From the IMG/VR virus record IMGVR_UViG_2541047959_000009: 64,000 bases of DNA; one strand, written 5' to 3'. The translations under genes and the position numbers were made by a program. The notes beneath the pieces are model-generated. The model saw only the letters and a program-made list of their open reading frames with translations, did no database searches and had not been told where the DNA came from. The stretch comes from a virus. Its lineage: Duplodnaviria > Heunggongvirae > Uroviricota > Caudoviricetes. This document shows positions 32,106-39,164 of the stretch, in pieces; the stretch's first letter is position 1, and each line of letters begins with the position of its first letter.

Positions 32106-33329
32106 ATGCGCAACATTATCGAATTAGAACAGATATCGGAAGAACTAAAAAAACATGAACTATTGCAACCCCCATTCATTGCCGAGGGAAAACTAATTTC
32201 TGACTTTTCTAAGAGAGTCGAGTGCTATTTAGAATTAATTGACTCCATTAGAAATAAATATCCTGACAACGAGATAATTAAACAAGTAAAGATTCGCACA
32301 AAATCAATAATATATTTATCTGATAAAATAATAGAAACTCTTAAGCTATTTTTAATAGGAAATGTTAAAGAAGCTTATAAAAAATTCGATTTGGCAATTA
32401 CCAAGTCATCAATGCATACTCATCTTTATAAGATGACTGTTCCTCTAACTAAATTATGCAACCCACACACCCCTTTATTTCGCGTAAGGAAAAGTGAGTG
32501 CATCCTAAAACAAAGAGAAGAATTATTTCATATACCATTTAAAAATAGACATTTAGTTAGCGCACAAAGATTTTCTGTATCCGGTCTTCCATGTTTATAT
32601 CTTGGAACATCAATATTTGTATGTTGGCAAGAAATGGGAAAACCTGACTTTGATAAACTTTACATATCTTCCTTCATATCCGATAAAGAAAATTCAAATA
32701 TAAGAATTTTAGATCTTGGGTACAATTTAACATCTGCACTTCGTACAAAACCGGGAGATCTTTGGTATTCATTCGAACAAGGTTCAGATGATGATTACGA
32801 TCTAAATAATGATAATTTCATGGATCAAATTAATGATAAAATTTCAAAGTTGATTGCATGGCCTTTAGTCCTTGCATGTAACTATACAAAAGATAATGAA
32901 AACGCAAGTTTTAATAAAGAATACATAATACCAAACCTATTAATGCAATGGATTAGTAGTGACAGAAACAAAAATATATCAGGGATATCGTATCGATCAA
33001 CAAAGATATTAAACCAAAAAGATAGCGATATTGGGATTAATGTAATTATCCCCCCAAAAATAGAAAACATAGTTGAAACCAATGATACCCACTGTCCTGT
33101 TTTAAAAAAAATATTTAGAGTTACAAACCCTGTTTCCTGGACTGTGTTTAGTACACTAGAAGCCACCCCCTATCTATACAAAAATAATTTTAATTTTTCG
33201 ACCTATAATCCCGCAAAAGGATGGATTGAAGACTTTGATGAATCCCTTGTTGAACATTATGAAAATACCACTTTTAGAAAAGTTGAACTCCTTATTCATC
33301 AAATGATGAAGTATGAATATTTAAAATAA
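32106..33329 (+). CDS. RES-domain protein (candidate NAD-targeting toxin/abortive-infection effector), 407 aa
   Basis: AT-rich ORF starting 4 nt after int stop; RES-like signature AQRFSVSGLPCLYLGTSIFVCWQE. Confidence 0.6.
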   Translation: MRNIIELEQISEELKKHELLQPPFIAEGKLISDFSKRVECYLELIDSIRNKYPDNEIIKQVKIRTKSIIYLSDKIIETLKLFLIGNVKEAYKKFDLAITKSSMHTHLYKMTVPLTKLCNPHTPLFRVRKSECILKQREELFHIPFKNRHLVSAQRFSVSGLPCLYLGTSIFVCWQEMGKPDFDKLYISSFISDKENSNIRILDLGYNLTSALRTKPGDLWYSFEQGSDDDYDLNNDNFMDQINDKISKLIAWPLVLACNYTKDNENASFNKEYIIPNLLMQWISSDRNKNISGISYRSTKILNQKDSDIGINVIIPPKIENIVETNDTHCPVLKKIFRVTNPVSWTVFSTLEATPYLYKNNFNFSTYNPAKGWIEDFDESLVEHYENTTFRKVELLIHQMMKYEYLK

Positions 33330-33445
33330 GAGTGGCGGCATAATGGCGGCAAAGAGTTAAAAACACATAAAACAAGGTAATACATCGTAAACTTAAGTGA
33401 TTGAAAATTAACATAAATAGTTGTTTTGCAACATGTTATAATGGT

Positions 33446-33490
33446 ATGTAGGAATTTCGGACGCGGGTTCAACTCCCGCCAGCTCCACCA
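33446..33490 (+). other. attachment-site core: 45-nt copy of ssrA (tmRNA) 3' end
   Basis: ATGTAGGAATTTCGGACGCGGGTTCAACTCCCGCCAGCTCCACCA matches the enterobacterial tmRNA 3' terminus; upstream sequence is not tmRNA. Confidence 0.85.
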
Positions 33491-33618
33491 ATCATGATTG
33501 GACGGTGTAAGGACAACACCAACAAAAACAGGAAGTTAGAAGTCTCAGCAGGACACCGACCAGACGGTGAGGAGACATAAAAGGATACGCAAAGGAGCCG
33601 CGGCTCCGAAGTGAAATG

Positions 33619-33646
33619 AAAGCCCGCTGATGCGGGCTTTTTTGCT
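33619..33646 (+). terminator. rho-independent terminator
   Basis: Stem AAGCCCGC/GCGGGCTT followed by TTTTT. Confidence 0.6.
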
Positions 33647-33875
33647 TCTTCTCTTTAGCCTGATTCGACACTCTCAATGCGGCCATAAACAACAACCCAC
33701 TTTTCTTATACCGTAGCCTGTCCCCCTCTTCCTGCTTTCTAACCATAACAGATGTGAGCGTTTGCTATGAGCGATATATAGTCATTCGTACCCTCCGATA
33801 CTAATCATCACAGAAATTAATATATTCATTCCTTACTGAAAAGCTATGAAGTAGATATATAGGATTGGGGCGCGT

Positions 33876-34073
33876 ATGGCACTGGACAGTTATGCATCTC
33901 CGAATATTATTCCGGAGCTAAGACAACCGAATGCCGCAGCAGGTAAGATCACGCTAGGGGGGCTGGACAGAATGGCTGTTACGCCCAGTGTGAAGAAAAG
34001 AAGGCTAAGTATGGTAGAATTTCCATACGCACAGACCTTGTTATCCGACTATACAGCCTGGAAGGCACTATGA
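33876..34073 (+). CDS. hypothetical small ORF overlapping start of downstream gene (ATGA)
   Basis: 65-aa ORF, 4-nt overlap suggests translational coupling. Confidence 0.3.
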   Translation: MALDSYASPNIIPELRQPNAAAGKITLGGLDRMAVTPSVKKRRLSMVEFPYAQTLLSDYTAWKAL

Positions 34074-34858
34074 CAAATCTACAACTGGAAGAAAGATTTA
34101 GGGCGCTTGAGAAAGATTACGATGCGCTCATTTCCACAAAATATACTGCGCAGAACGTTCTCACTCACACTATGGAAACCTATGTTGATTCTGGTAAATA
34201 TAAAAACTGGATCGCCAGAGTGAAAAAGTTAATAGAGGACAGCTACGGAAAAGAGTCTGATTATTACAATGACTTCAATACTGTAAACAGCAGGTGGTCT
34301 TCTAATTACAATACACTGATCAAAAGTTATAAACCGTTGTTTGATGCGGCGAGAGATGATCTTGCGCACTCTGCTGTCAGTACTAATACTCCTCAAGAAG
34401 GTTCGCCGCTGAGCCTCGTACTTAATATTCTTAACAGGTTTCCGACCTTTGTTCGCCAGTTAAAGAGGCGGTACAACGGCCGTGCGCCGCTTGAAGTTAA
34501 TGATGAGTATGACGTACAGGATTTGATTTATGCACTGCTGACGCTTCATTTTAATGATATTAGGGCGGAAGAGTATACCCCCAGCTTTGCGGGCGCGGCC
34601 TCAAGACAGGACTTTCTTTTGAAAAAAGAGAAAATTGTGATAGAGGTGAAGAAAACCCGTGAATCTCTGGGAGCGGGTAAAGTTGGTGGAGAGTTGCTTA
34701 TTGATATGGCGCGCTACCGCGCTCACCAAGACTGCGATACGTTGATCTTGTTTGTATATGACCCGGATTGCTACATAAATAATCCTTTGGGCGTGAAAAC
34801 CGATCTGGAATCTAAAGACGCGGAAGGAAAAGTGAAGGTTGTTATTGCGCAGTTCTGA
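34070..34858 (+). CDS. hypothetical protein with C-terminal PD-(D/E)xK-like nuclease motif
   Basis: 262-aa AT-rich ORF; ...RQDFLLKKEKIVIEVKKT... D-x(n)-EVK pattern. Confidence 0.6.
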   Translation: MTNLQLEERFRALEKDYDALISTKYTAQNVLTHTMETYVDSGKYKNWIARVKKLIEDSYGKESDYYNDFNTVNSRWSSNYNTLIKSYKPLFDAARDDLAHSAVSTNTPQEGSPLSLVLNILNRFPTFVRQLKRRYNGRAPLEVNDEYDVQDLIYALLTLHFNDIRAEEYTPSFAGAASRQDFLLKKEKIVIEVKKTRESLGAGKVGGELLIDMARYRAHQDCDTLILFVYDPDCYINNPLGVKTDLESKDAEGKVKVVIAQF

Positions 34859-34945
34859 CACGCTTAAGTGTCACCTTACAGGATTAGGTTTGCGGCCGTG
34901 CCAGCAGGACGAGCATGAAAAAGGCCGCTGGCACGGCCGGATTTG

Positions 34946-35239
34946 TCATCTTTGCCAGGTCAAATCAAAATCTACGTGAAAATCCGCAGGCTTAAGCTCG
35001 CAACTGCCACCACGCCCAATTAACGACGTTATGTTTACAACGTTTGAACCTGTTGAGATGGCAAGTTGAGTGTCATCTGTAAACGTGATGATTAGCATTT
35101 CAGTCTGATGAACCTGTACTCCAGTTTTCTGAAAACCAATCTGGACAGATTTCACCGTTTTCCCAACCATTTCACGGGCTTGATTGATAGAGTAATTAGC
35201 TTCAACTTGTAGGTCATTCCTGAACTTGGGTAGTGTCAT
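34946..35239 (-). CDS. hypothetical protein
   Basis: 97-aa ORF downstream of GIY-YIG gene on same strand. Confidence 0.4.
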   Translation of the reverse strand: MTLPKFRNDLQVEANYSINQAREMVGKTVKSVQIGFQKTGVQVHQTEMLIITFTDDTQLAISTGSNVVNITSLIGRGGSCELKPADFHVDFDLTWQR

Positions 35240-35449
35240 TTTACATCCTCTTTAGTGAAGTTTTCGCTATTTAAATCAGCAGCATTCCTTTTAAATCACT
35301 GGCATGTCAGCAGTGGATAGTCTGAGTGTAACGTCCAGTGAGGGGAATAAATATTGGTCAGACTTTGCACAAAAGAGCCAACTATCGCGGGCTCTCTCTC
35401 ATCATGTGCGAAAATTGACCACAATATGAAATCCAGTTCCATTCCGAAA

Positions 35450-36274
<825 letters not shown>

Positions 36275-37214: not shown

Positions 37215-39164
37215 ATGATTGTTCTAAATCAGATTAACTCCTCACTTTTGTACAATGTCGCTTACAGGTATACCATGAAATCCGAGACGCTAACTGTCCA
37301 ACAACTTTTTCAAGACCGCCGACAATACTGTGTTCCATTCTATCAACGTGCCTATGTATGGACTCAGCAAGACCAGTGGTCAGCTCTACTGGAGGATATC
37401 CTAGAGAAAGTACAATCCCGGCTCTCGGGTACAAAACCAACTCCCCATTTCCTTGGTGCGGTTGTACTGGAACCTCAATCAAAAAAAGGATTATTAGGTG
37501 TAGATTCCATACATATTATTGATGGTCAGCAACGATTGACCACTCTTCAATATGTTCTGGCATCCATCCGATTAGCATTACGTGCTACGGATCTTTCCAG
37601 CTTAGAGGCTCTCATTTCGCCTTGCCTGAAAAACTCAAACGAAGACACAATGCGAAATAAAGAAGTAGAACGCTTCAAACTGTGGCCAACTTTTCGGGAT
37701 CAAACTCATTTTATTCAAAGTTTTAATGTTGAAAATATTGACGATCTCCGGGACGTATTCTCTGATAGTTTCACGCAGCATGGTACGTTGCGTAAGCATT
37801 TTAATCACCCGCCATCACTAGAAGCATTATGTTTTTTTACTGAAGCCTTTATAAAATGGATTAAAATAGAAAACCACTCACCACAAGAAAATGCTGTAGC
37901 TCTAATTGAGGCTGTCTTAACAGATCTGAAACTGGTAAGCATATTTCTCGAAGCTGAAGATGATGCCCAAATAATTTTTGAAACATTAAATGGGCGAGGG
38001 GCGGAACTTCATGCTACGGATCTTATTCGCAACTATATCTTTATGTGCGCTGAGCATGAAAATATTAATGCTATTGAATTATATGAAAATGAGTGGAAGA
38101 GCTTTGAAGATAAATACTGGTCGGAAAAACAACGCCGTGGACGTATTAATAAACCACGCATGGAGTGGCTAGTACATGCGACATTGCAATCAGAAAGGCA
38201 ACGTGAAATTGATCTGTCTCGCCTTTACAATGAGTATCGTGATTATGTAAGTAAGGACTTGTCTTCACAACGAGCAGATCTGCAAGTAAAGCGCCTCAAA
38301 CAATATGCATCACAATATAAAGAATTGGTTGATGGTTTTGGCACAACCCCCATCTCACACTTTGGATATCGCATCGCAGACTATGATGTGACGACACTTT
38401 ATCCGCTTGCTTTGTTCATTTCGATAGCTAACATCGCTGATGATGAGAAAGCAGCCATGTATAATGATCTTGTCTCCTACGTAGTACGAAGAGCCGTATG
38501 TGGCCTGACGCCAAAGAATTACAACAATGTATTTATGAATGTATTGCGGCACTTGGCTAAAACGGAAATTTCCAGTGTTGAGTTACGTAATATCCTCAAT
38601 AACTTAAATGGCGAAGCCTCACGTTGGCCTGGTGACTCAGAATTTCTCAACGCTTGCATCAATGCTCCACTTTATCCTGGCAGGCTCGACGCACCGAAAA
38701 TGCGCTCAATGTTAACGGAACTTGAAAGAGAACTTTGTCGCCAAGTAAAGACAGAAAAGCCTGATGTTCCAAATCTTTCTAATCTCGATATCGATCATCT
38801 TATGCCTCAAAGTTGGTATTCCTGTTGGCCTCTCGAAAATGGTCGTATGGTGACAAATTCAGATGCTACGGTATTGAACCAAATTGTTCTGTCTGGAACC
38901 GATCTTACCCCTGAACAGCTACTGGTAAGGAAACGGCAACAAGCGATATCTACTTTGGGAAATCTAACTTTGCTTAACCTTAGCGTAAACCGTTCTGTTC
39001 AGAATGCTGTATTTCTGAAAAAACGTGATGCTCTCATCGTCCACACCAATCTACGACTGAACATTCCACTTATAGTTAAGGATAAATGGGATGAGGATGA
39101 AATCCTGGAGCGGGGTAAAAAGTTGGGGGAAATTGCATTGAAAGTATGGCCAAAACACGATTAA
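37215..39164 (+). CDS. GmrSD-family putative type IV restriction endonuclease (DUF262 + DUF1524/HNH-like)
   Basis: 649-aa AT-rich ORF; N-terminal PFYQRAYVW and IIDGQQR (DUF262/ParB-like), C-terminal DIDHLMPQSW (His-Me finger). Confidence 0.8.
   Translation: MIVLNQINSSLLYNVAYRYTMKSETLTVQQLFQDRRQYCVPFYQRAYVWTQQDQWSALLEDILEKVQSRLSGTKPTPHFLGAVVLEPQSKKGLLGVDSIHIIDGQQRLTTLQYVLASIRLALRATDLSSLEALISPCLKNSNEDTMRNKEVERFKLWPTFRDQTHFIQSFNVENIDDLRDVFSDSFTQHGTLRKHFNHPPSLEALCFFTEAFIKWIKIENHSPQENAVALIEAVLTDLKLVSIFLEAEDDAQIIFETLNGRGAELHATDLIRNYIFMCAEHENINAIELYENEWKSFEDKYWSEKQRRGRINKPRMEWLVHATLQSERQREIDLSRLYNEYRDYVSKDLSSQRADLQVKRLKQYASQYKELVDGFGTTPISHFGYRIADYDVTTLYPLALFISIANIADDEKAAMYNDLVSYVVRRAVCGLTPKNYNNVFMNVLRHLAKTEISSVELRNILNNLNGEASRWPGDSEFLNACINAPLYPGRLDAPKMRSMLTELERELCRQVKTEKPDVPNLSNLDIDHLMPQSWYSCWPLENGRMVTNSDATVLNQIVLSGTDLTPEQLLVRKRQQAISTLGNLTLLNLSVNRSVQNAVFLKKRDALIVHTNLRLNIPLIVKDKWDEDEILERGKKLGEIALKVWPKHD

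Follow-up and report, generated by a model that had tools for sequence, protein, structure and literature searches.

A 262-aa PD-(D/E)xK nuclease gene at the tmRNA integration site of E. coli: a candidate single-gene, autoinhibited defence nuclease

Introduction

Does the short islet at the tmRNA integration site of this DNA encode a coupled two-gene defence or toxin module, or a nuclease that works by itself? The question is raised by two open reading frames (ORFs) on the plus strand, both with ATG starts, which we confirmed at 33876–34073 (65 aa) and 34070–34858 (262 aa) and which overlap by ATGA. A preliminary description of the window (the whole stretch of 64,000 nt analysed here) had taken the two frames as one module, with the larger protein as a small nuclease and the smaller frame translationally coupled to it. 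Our analysis retains the nuclease and discards the coupled small ORF. We give an even chance to the reading that the product of the 262-aa gene is an autoinhibited defence nuclease that works as a single-gene system.

Results

The surroundings of the gene were examined first at the level of the integration site. A 3′ fragment of ssrA, the tmRNA gene, is found at 33420..33490 on the plus strand (Rfam tmRNA match, E 9.6e-11) and is the attachment-site copy left by a 186-like prophage. In strain ATCC 11775, which lacks the 186-like prophage, an intact ssrA ends 580 nt before the start of the nuclease gene. Because the tmRNA 3′ fragment is present here and an intact ssrA directly precedes the nuclease gene in ATCC 11775, we conclude that the islet occupies the tmRNA integration site. 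This locus is hotspot #9 in a survey of E. coli defence islands (PMC10121019). The search for tRNA or tmRNA genes returned none in the window or in the loci of close homologues, with Rfam giving the tmRNA fragment only, and a repeat search found no direct repeats flanking the islet. E. coli S88 and MS7163 are identical to the window over the nuclease stretch, and the whole islet is carried by 113 of 5,426 complete E. coli genomes. The neighbours of the nuclease gene in the window are PD-T4-3 (PADLOC, E 1e-135) and a GmrSD type IV enzyme. Together with the tmRNA hotspot these genes provide the defence context expected of the proposed nuclease-based defence or toxin module, of which the nuclease part stands and the coupled small ORF falls.

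The 262-aa gene (34070..34858, plus strand; present in the ORF listing and annotated by RefSeq) is AT-rich, as had been noted, with 43.2% GC compared to 50.7% for the window. Residues 117–261 of its product (34418..34852, plus strand) match the PD-(D/E)xK nuclease domain REase_DpnII-MboI (PF18742) in Pfam with an E-value of 9.5e-49 and 165.3 bits, which exceeds the 27-bit gathering cut-off and places the protein in this family; the match covers profile positions 3–149 of 150. The E...D...EVK pattern of the preliminary description proved to be real, lies inside the PF18742 match and constitutes the catalytic signature: D145-E146-Y-D148, R179-x-D181 and E192-V-K194 (that is, E192-x-K194) are invariant in 43 homologues. 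The catalytic codons are located on the plus strand at 34610–34612 (D181), 34643–34645 (E192) and 34649–34651 (K194).

The AF2 model of the protein (pLDDT 84) displays a canonical alpha-beta-beta-beta-alpha-beta nuclease core bearing the motif residues, with an acidic residue on beta-2 and the (D/E)xK motif on beta-3 as in the PD-(D/E)xK superfamily; acidic residues are also present on helix 146–158 of the C-terminal domain. A fold search with this model returned restriction-endonuclease-fold matches, while Foldseek against the PDB gave weak matches to the nuclease domain only, the best at E 2.5e-3. Fold prediction and fold search, together with the Pfam match and the intact motif, thus uphold the restriction-endonuclease fold that had been suggested. 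Taken together, these results indicate that the 262-aa protein is a PD-(D/E)xK nuclease with an intact catalytic motif. In PADLOC the protein matches the Argonaute-associated Aga_Helical-REase models only (E 1e-26); version 2 of this database has no separate system for the family. The sole solved relative by sequence is EcbAgaN (PDB 23wq, E 8e-6), with which the RxD...IEVK motifs are aligned.

Since the Pfam domain takes its name from DpnII and MboI, the protein might be a solitary restriction endonuclease of the DpnII/MboI kind, which would cut unmethylated GATC, leave the host protected by its orphan Dam and restrict unmethylated incoming DNA. Enterobacterales are Dam-positive, the adjacent prophage in the window encodes a DNA adenine methylase, and a Dam-protected enzyme could afford to be a solitary gene. 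However, the protein matches neither a PADLOC type II REase model (REase_II) nor any other Pfam REase family, its nuclease domain is a minimal core of ~150 aa, and no DNA-recognition domain is recognisable by the AF2 model or the fold search. Furthermore, EcbAgaN, which among characterised relatives is the closest, acts as a non-specific DNase effector, and the solitary ~260-aa form occurs across phyla and in archaea without an adjacent methyltransferase. We therefore regard a GATC-specific enzyme as quite unlikely. No Dam-type methyltransferase was found within 5–6 kb at ~135 loci, and the islet and the recurrent neighbours of 75 diverse loci contain no methyltransferase. DpnII and MboI share with the 262-aa protein the domain family that names PF18742; unlike in their restriction-modification systems, a cognate methyltransferase is absent here, and the protein carries an additional N-terminal domain that it shares with HEPN-like proteins. 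A canonical type II restriction-modification enzyme was rejected for lack of an adjacent methyltransferase.

The N-terminal half, which had been described as coiled-coil-like, looks different in the AF2 model: residues 1–100 (34070..34369, plus strand; pLDDT mostly >86) form a helical domain with a beta-hairpin, and there is no long coiled coil. The domain is followed by a variable, low-confidence linker of residues 101–112 (34370..34405, plus strand; AF2 and alignment). Residues 102–108 have a pLDDT <50 and are modelled as disordered, and column entropy in the alignment peaks in the linker. Mean identity is 50% for the N-terminal domain versus 69% for the C-terminal domain, showing that the former evolves faster.

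When residues 1–115 were compared with 1.84 billion representatives, only 16 matches were obtained, mostly fragments of the nuclease family, so that by sequence the domain hardly occurs outside it; among the matches HEPN-like fusions were revealed. Three proteins (P0129, P0131 and P0133) share the N-terminal domain of the nuclease (hhalign 98.8%, E 5.6e-17, residues 2–100). In two of these, P0131 and P0133, the domain is followed by a different C-terminus, which contains an R-N-x-x-A-H-G motif and matches HEPN families weakly, while P0129 is cut off before the HEPN-like region. A profile of 25 N-terminal domains searched against a 5.8-billion database yielded fragments of at most 175 aa only and no new architectures. 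As judged from these sequences the N-terminal domain is modular, fused to an REase domain here and to a HEPN-like C-terminus elsewhere. To combine a single regulatory module with different nuclease effectors is typical of immune systems, and we propose the N-terminal domain as a regulatory or sensor module.

We next considered the 65-aa ORF (33876..34073, plus strand), which, following the ORF listing and comparison with homologues, we judge to be non-coding sequence over the leader and promoter region of the nuclease gene. In the two-gene module it would be translationally coupled to the nuclease as an antitoxin or regulator. The ATGA overlap and the ATG-initiated 65-codon frame do exist, and when the 429-nt intergenic region was shuffled, just 1.3% of the shuffles gave an ORF of 65 or more codons up to the same TGA, a frequency that is unremarkable given the ~60 genes of the 64-kb window. 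Against the proposal, RefSeq does not annotate the ORF in any of 4 genomes, although the 262-aa gene is annotated there; searches of Pfam, PADLOC and NCBIfam gave no family match; and GC content by codon position is 0.50/0.48/0.47, that is, without periodicity, compared to 0.49/0.34/0.46 for the nuclease.

The comparison of leaders points in the same direction. Among 14 further distinct leaders, taken from Enterobacterales homologues with 57–91% protein identity, this frame stays open over 5–34 codons only. The 65-aa frame is unique to the E. coli leader, being absent or broken in Serratia, Pantoea, Enterobacter, Pectobacterium, Kosakonia and the plasmid homologues, even in leaders whose nuclease is 85–91% identical. 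The Serratia leader, whose nuclease is 91% identical, can be aligned over its full length; here the ORF start is ACG, and a 13-nt and a 1-nt indel break the frame. The sole recurrent piece is a mini-frame of ~20 codons with its ATG inside a TGnTAnAAT element, and in some homologues (P0034 and P0126) the DNA of this mini-frame is in frame with the nuclease instead. Since the DNA of this region is sometimes part of the nuclease frame, conservation is at the level of the DNA. The 65-aa ORF is probably no gene and instead a by-product of the leader sequence, and we consider its coupling to the nuclease very improbable and already largely refuted by the comparative data: the ORF lacks annotation, shows no conservation and lies over a promoter-like element that is itself conserved. 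A toxin–antitoxin pair comprising the 65-aa ORF was likewise rejected, as the small gene upstream of a toxin would be expected to be conserved along with it and this ORF is not conserved.

The conserved signals of the leader instead suggest that the nuclease gene is expressed from its own promoter. Of 16 distinct homologue leaders, 15 contain the TGnTAnAAT element, at −45 to −58 relative to the ATG and independently of the reading frame. In the window it reads TGGTAGAAT (34012..34020, plus strand) and in Erwinia TGGTATAAT. We read it as the predicted extended −10 element of the nuclease promoter, an assignment drawn from conservation across leaders; a consensus promoter scan that depends on a −35 element did not report the site at 34012–34020. 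A GGAAGG Shine-Dalgarno sequence of the nuclease gene follows at 34060..34065 (plus strand), and the arrangement GGA(A/T)GG then CAC(T/A)ATG is kept across homologue leaders. RNAalifold detected no conserved 5′-UTR structure in 13 leaders. Upstream of the leader the consensus scan identified a terminator-like hairpin (33618..33641, plus strand; 10-bp stem, then a T run), which would stop transcription from upstream before it reaches the 65-aa ORF.

A different small gene lies on the other side of the nuclease. The 97-aa hypothetical protein WP_000174562.1 is encoded on the minus strand at 34946..35239, convergent with the nuclease, and its linkage makes it a candidate accessory partner. Between the convergent genes is inverted repeat I5 (34893..34939), with a perfect 13-bp stem and a 21-nt loop, which is likely a bidirectional terminator; it is conserved in Serratia, and the consensus scan also reports a minus-strand terminator-like site there. 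Leader, nuclease, terminator and 97-aa gene together form a 1.6-kb cassette (33790..35380) that shares 89% nucleotide identity with Serratia marcescens by blastn. The Serratia cassette is situated between lysR-type and lacI-type genes, and a repeat search found no terminal repeats at the cassette ends.

These observations admit a two-gene reading, in which the nuclease works with the 97-aa protein as, for example, an inhibitor, immunity factor or trigger adaptor. The 97-aa family is narrow, with 20 clusters only, all from Enterobacterales, and in 6 of the 7 genera examined the gene is convergent to a nuclease homologue or its remnant: this holds for E. coli, Enterobacter, Serratia, Erwinia and Kosakonia, for Citrobacter at a distance of 2.4 kb, and for Salmonella with a nuclease remnant of 25 aa. 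The identities of nuclease and 97-aa protein co-vary (91/94, 87/86, 85/84, 61/57 and 57/70%), and both genes have moved as a unit of 1.6 kb between E. coli and Serratia. However, most nuclease homologues, including those of IncX and IncF plasmids, Pantoea, Pectobacterium and all other phyla, lack the 97-aa gene, which for this reason is not obligatory; and since the two genes are convergent and separated by the terminator, they are not co-transcribed. In addition, the 97-aa protein has no match among the Pfam, PADLOC and NCBIfam families, its AF2 model (pLDDT 54) is uninformative and not good enough to support a fold search, and one Pantoea ICE carries the gene without a nuclease nearby. On balance we deem a two-gene cassette unlikely. 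If any partner exists, the 97-aa gene is a better small-partner candidate than the 65-aa ORF, and it might be required in the subfamily of this nuclease, in which case the description 'single-gene' would be wrong here.

To place the nuclease in a wider context we collected ~2,500 homologues; more than 550 species-representative genomes carry one. The ~250–265-aa architecture is found in Enterobacterales, Planctomycetota, Cyanobacteria, Bacteroidota, Firmicutes and archaea. The 137 nearest-neighbour proteins at 75 diverse loci contain no family more than 3 times, the commonest being phage integrase (3). The absence of a recurrent neighbour family and of a Dam-type methyltransferase nearby characterises the gene as solitary. 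As had been noted, there is no partner NTPase in the islet or among the recurrent neighbours of the 75 loci. No Argonaute is encoded near the gene in the window or among the neighbours of these loci. GajA, Old, type I S subunits, Eco47II and HEPN proteins are scattered among the neighbours, and many other neighbours are ordinary genes. Kiwa KwaB is found nearby in the Enterobacter locus, which is in a prophage region. The defence reading of such neighbourhoods is guilt by association. No homologue was detected in 50,697 phage genomes, and homologues are rare in IMG/VR (34 loci); this scarcity in phages fits defence and equally any host or plasmid function.

The plasmid copies bear on a further possibility, namely that the nuclease serves the mobile element that carries it, through competition or exclusion between plasmids or islands, through recombination or repair, or by addiction-type stabilisation. 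The gene is frequent on conjugative IncX1, IncX4 and IncF plasmids, beside resolvase and partition genes, and elsewhere it adjoins integrases and satellite-like primase genes, as in the Pantoea locus, where a truncated integrase flanks it on one side and a satellite-type primase on the other. About half of the plasmid matches are truncated remnants, which suggests cost or dispensability. However, on plasmids the gene sits in variable cargo and not in the replication or transfer backbone: it occupies a hotspot of IncX plasmids, and on IncX1 the order is resolvase / nuclease / Abi_2 with variable cargo of CBASS-like, TIR or HEPN type after it. An antitoxin-like conserved neighbour is absent from the 75 loci, and the chromosomal islet has lost any integrase, yet the nuclease protein is intact and identical in the 4 E. 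coli genomes checked and the islet persists in 113. An element-serving role is, in our estimate, improbable.

Discussion

Collectively, our results favour a stand-alone nuclease that resembles several characterised systems in working principle only. The closest parallel is EcbAgaN, the BPAN effector of a long-B pAgo. Like the 262-aa protein, it has a helical N-terminal domain, a flexible linker and a homologous C-terminal PD-(D/E)xK nuclease with an RxD...(I/V)EVK motif. EcbAgaN requires its D-EVK motif, and on its own the C-terminal domain is toxic; the dimer is autoinhibited through the helical N-terminal domain and turns active upon higher-order assembly (PMC13535254). However, EcbAgaN is 390 aa long and has an Argonaute partner, whereas our protein is 262 aa long and its gene has none. 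The AgaN alignments (PADLOC and PDB) pair query residues ~100–258 with residues 212–372 of the AgaN model and thus cover the nuclease only, and the N-terminal domain of AgaN has no detectable similarity to that of the 262-aa protein. A BPAN/AgaN system was rejected, as there is neither a co-encoded, catalytically inactive long-B Argonaute nor full-length homology that would include the N-terminal Ago-binding domain.

PF18742 has also been described as an alternative effector domain in Detocs (bioRxiv 10.1101/2023.01.24.525353). In such variants the DtcC effector carries the PF18742 REase domain, as does the 262-aa protein. Unlike our locus, Detocs consists of three genes that form a phosphorelay, with the effector under the control of a receiver domain; neither the partner genes nor a receiver domain occur here, and a Detocs component was rejected on these grounds. 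Shedu (SduA) is a single-protein defence nuclease, but its family is DUF4263 rather than PF18742, it has no sequence homology to the 262-aa protein and the latter is much smaller; with DUF4263 not matched in Pfam, Shedu was rejected. The PD-(D/E)xK DNase toxins CdiA-CT of EC869 and Y. pseudotuberculosis and the CRISPR ancillary nucleases Can2/Card1 are alike at the level of the fold only (9–15% identity); the 262-aa locus lacks the CdiI-like immunity gene and delivery domain of the former and the CARF sensor of the latter. As with type II restriction-modification, the resemblance to BPAN/AgaN, Detocs and Shedu thus does not extend beyond the principle.

In the model that we prefer, the protein would have two domains, a helical N-terminal domain of ~100 aa and, after a flexible linker, a C-terminal REase domain with D181, E192 and K194, and would be expressed from its own predicted promoter (the extended −10 at 34012–34020) and its own Shine-Dalgarno sequence. 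In the resting state the N-terminal domain would keep the nuclease, probably dimeric, inactive. An invader-derived cue would be sensed via the N-terminal domain and would relieve the inhibition, probably by a change in oligomeric state, and the freed nuclease would then degrade DNA with little sequence specificity. The protein would thereby act as an effector of defence or abortive infection that consists of a single gene and travels on mobile islands and plasmids. We base the proposed silencing of the nuclease by the N-terminal domain before a cue arrives on the EcbAgaN precedent and on the use of PF18742 as an effector in Detocs; since the N-terminal domain has no detectable homology to that of AgaN, autoinhibition is proposed by analogy. 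The identity of the nuclease domain, its fold and catalytic motif, the solitary architecture, the surrounding defence genes, the modularity of the N-terminal domain and the lack of conservation of the 65-aa ORF come directly from the analysis; autoinhibition, the trigger, non-specific DNase activity and an anti-phage or anti-plasmid phenotype are all features that we infer.

A bolder extension of this model, which we put forward tentatively and think rather less probable than not, would make the ~100-aa N-terminal domain a hitherto unrecognised sensor or regulator that gates swappable effectors, an REase DNase in the present family and a HEPN-like RNase in its relatives. This would define a new, compact (~260 aa) and widespread family of single-protein abortive-infection systems, present on IncX/IncF resistance plasmids and paired with a dedicated 97-aa modulator in some Enterobacterales. 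The N-terminal module shared with HEPN-like proteins offers a tractable case in which to study how a minimal sensor might control a generic immune nuclease without Argonaute, CARF or phosphorelay partners.

Literature searches found neither an experiment nor a publication on the stand-alone family, and we consider these ~260-aa nucleases an uncharacterised, widespread candidate defence gene. Should it prove to function in defence, the catalogue would gain a very small system made up of one gene. The gene is common in the islets of ExPEC/APEC lineages at the tmRNA hotspot and also travels on conjugative IncX1, IncX4 and IncF plasmids with resistance genes. As for annotation, a false small gene is removed from the locus and the convergent 97-aa gene takes its place as a different candidate partner. 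The family is not scored as its own system by PADLOC v2 and is frequently mislabelled in public databases: many entries name homologues of the nuclease 'malate dehydrogenase', which is a misannotation.

Genes around the nuclease

Convergent to the nuclease gene lies a gene for a hypothetical protein of 97 aa (window 34946-35239, minus strand), which may be the real accessory partner of the nuclease. This gene was found in the window and at loci L008, L089-L091, L093, L097, L098 and L100; linkage to a nuclease homologue, or to a remnant of one, holds in six of the seven genera, and the two genes co-diverge. Together they make up a 1.6-kb cassette, present in the E. coli tmRNA islet (window 33790-35380) and, flanked by lysR-type and lacI-type genes, in Serratia marcescens (L089 4749-6352), with 89% nucleotide identity between the two copies. 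The cassette carries neither terminal repeats nor a recombinase.

Known defence genes of the PD-T4-3 and GmrSD types lie next to the nuclease locus. One, at window 35450-36256 on the minus strand, encodes a PD-T4-3 GIY-YIG nuclease (PADLOC E 1e-135); the other, at 37215-39164 on the plus strand, encodes a type IV restriction enzyme of the GmrSD type (PADLOC E 0). Between the two, RefSeq annotates a frameshifted DinI-like pseudogene. A 407-aa ORF of very low GC content (30.6%; window 32106-33329, plus strand) starts 4 nt past the integrase gene of the 186-like prophage and has no match in Pfam, PADLOC or NCBIfam; lying at the attachment-site end, it is a possible prophage moron or defence candidate.

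Plasmid and satellite-like settings

On IncX1 plasmids (L102-L105 and L003) the DpnII-MboI nuclease occupies a cargo hotspot in which a resolvase gene is followed by the nuclease, a convergent Abi_2 gene, variable cargo (SMODS/AGS_C with SLATT_6, HEPN_RiboL-PSP, ApeA-HEPN or a CAP12-PCTIR TIR) and hns/hha. In about half of the plasmid records that match the nuclease (367 in all), the gene survives only as truncated remnants (matches H37-H60); on IncF plasmids, for example, these cover aa 1-70 or 1-218. This suggests frequent decay. In Pantoea sp. BAV 3049 a homologue with 89% identity and a DUF2971 gene sit together, with a truncated integrase on one side of them and a D5-type primase and Ash on the other; this region (L007 4332-11433) is a satellite- or PICI-like element.

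Domain exchange and database naming

The N-terminal domain of the nuclease recurs in two proteins of ~220 aa, P0131 and P0133 (hhalign 98.8%). Their C-terminus is HEPN-like, with an RNSAAHG motif and weak matches to HEPN_RiboL-PSP, DUF4145 and Ymh, and its presence on this N-terminal domain is an effector swap. Many NCBI and UniProt entries of the nuclease family (P0004, P0007, P0011 and others) are named 'malate dehydrogenase', evidently a propagated misannotation.
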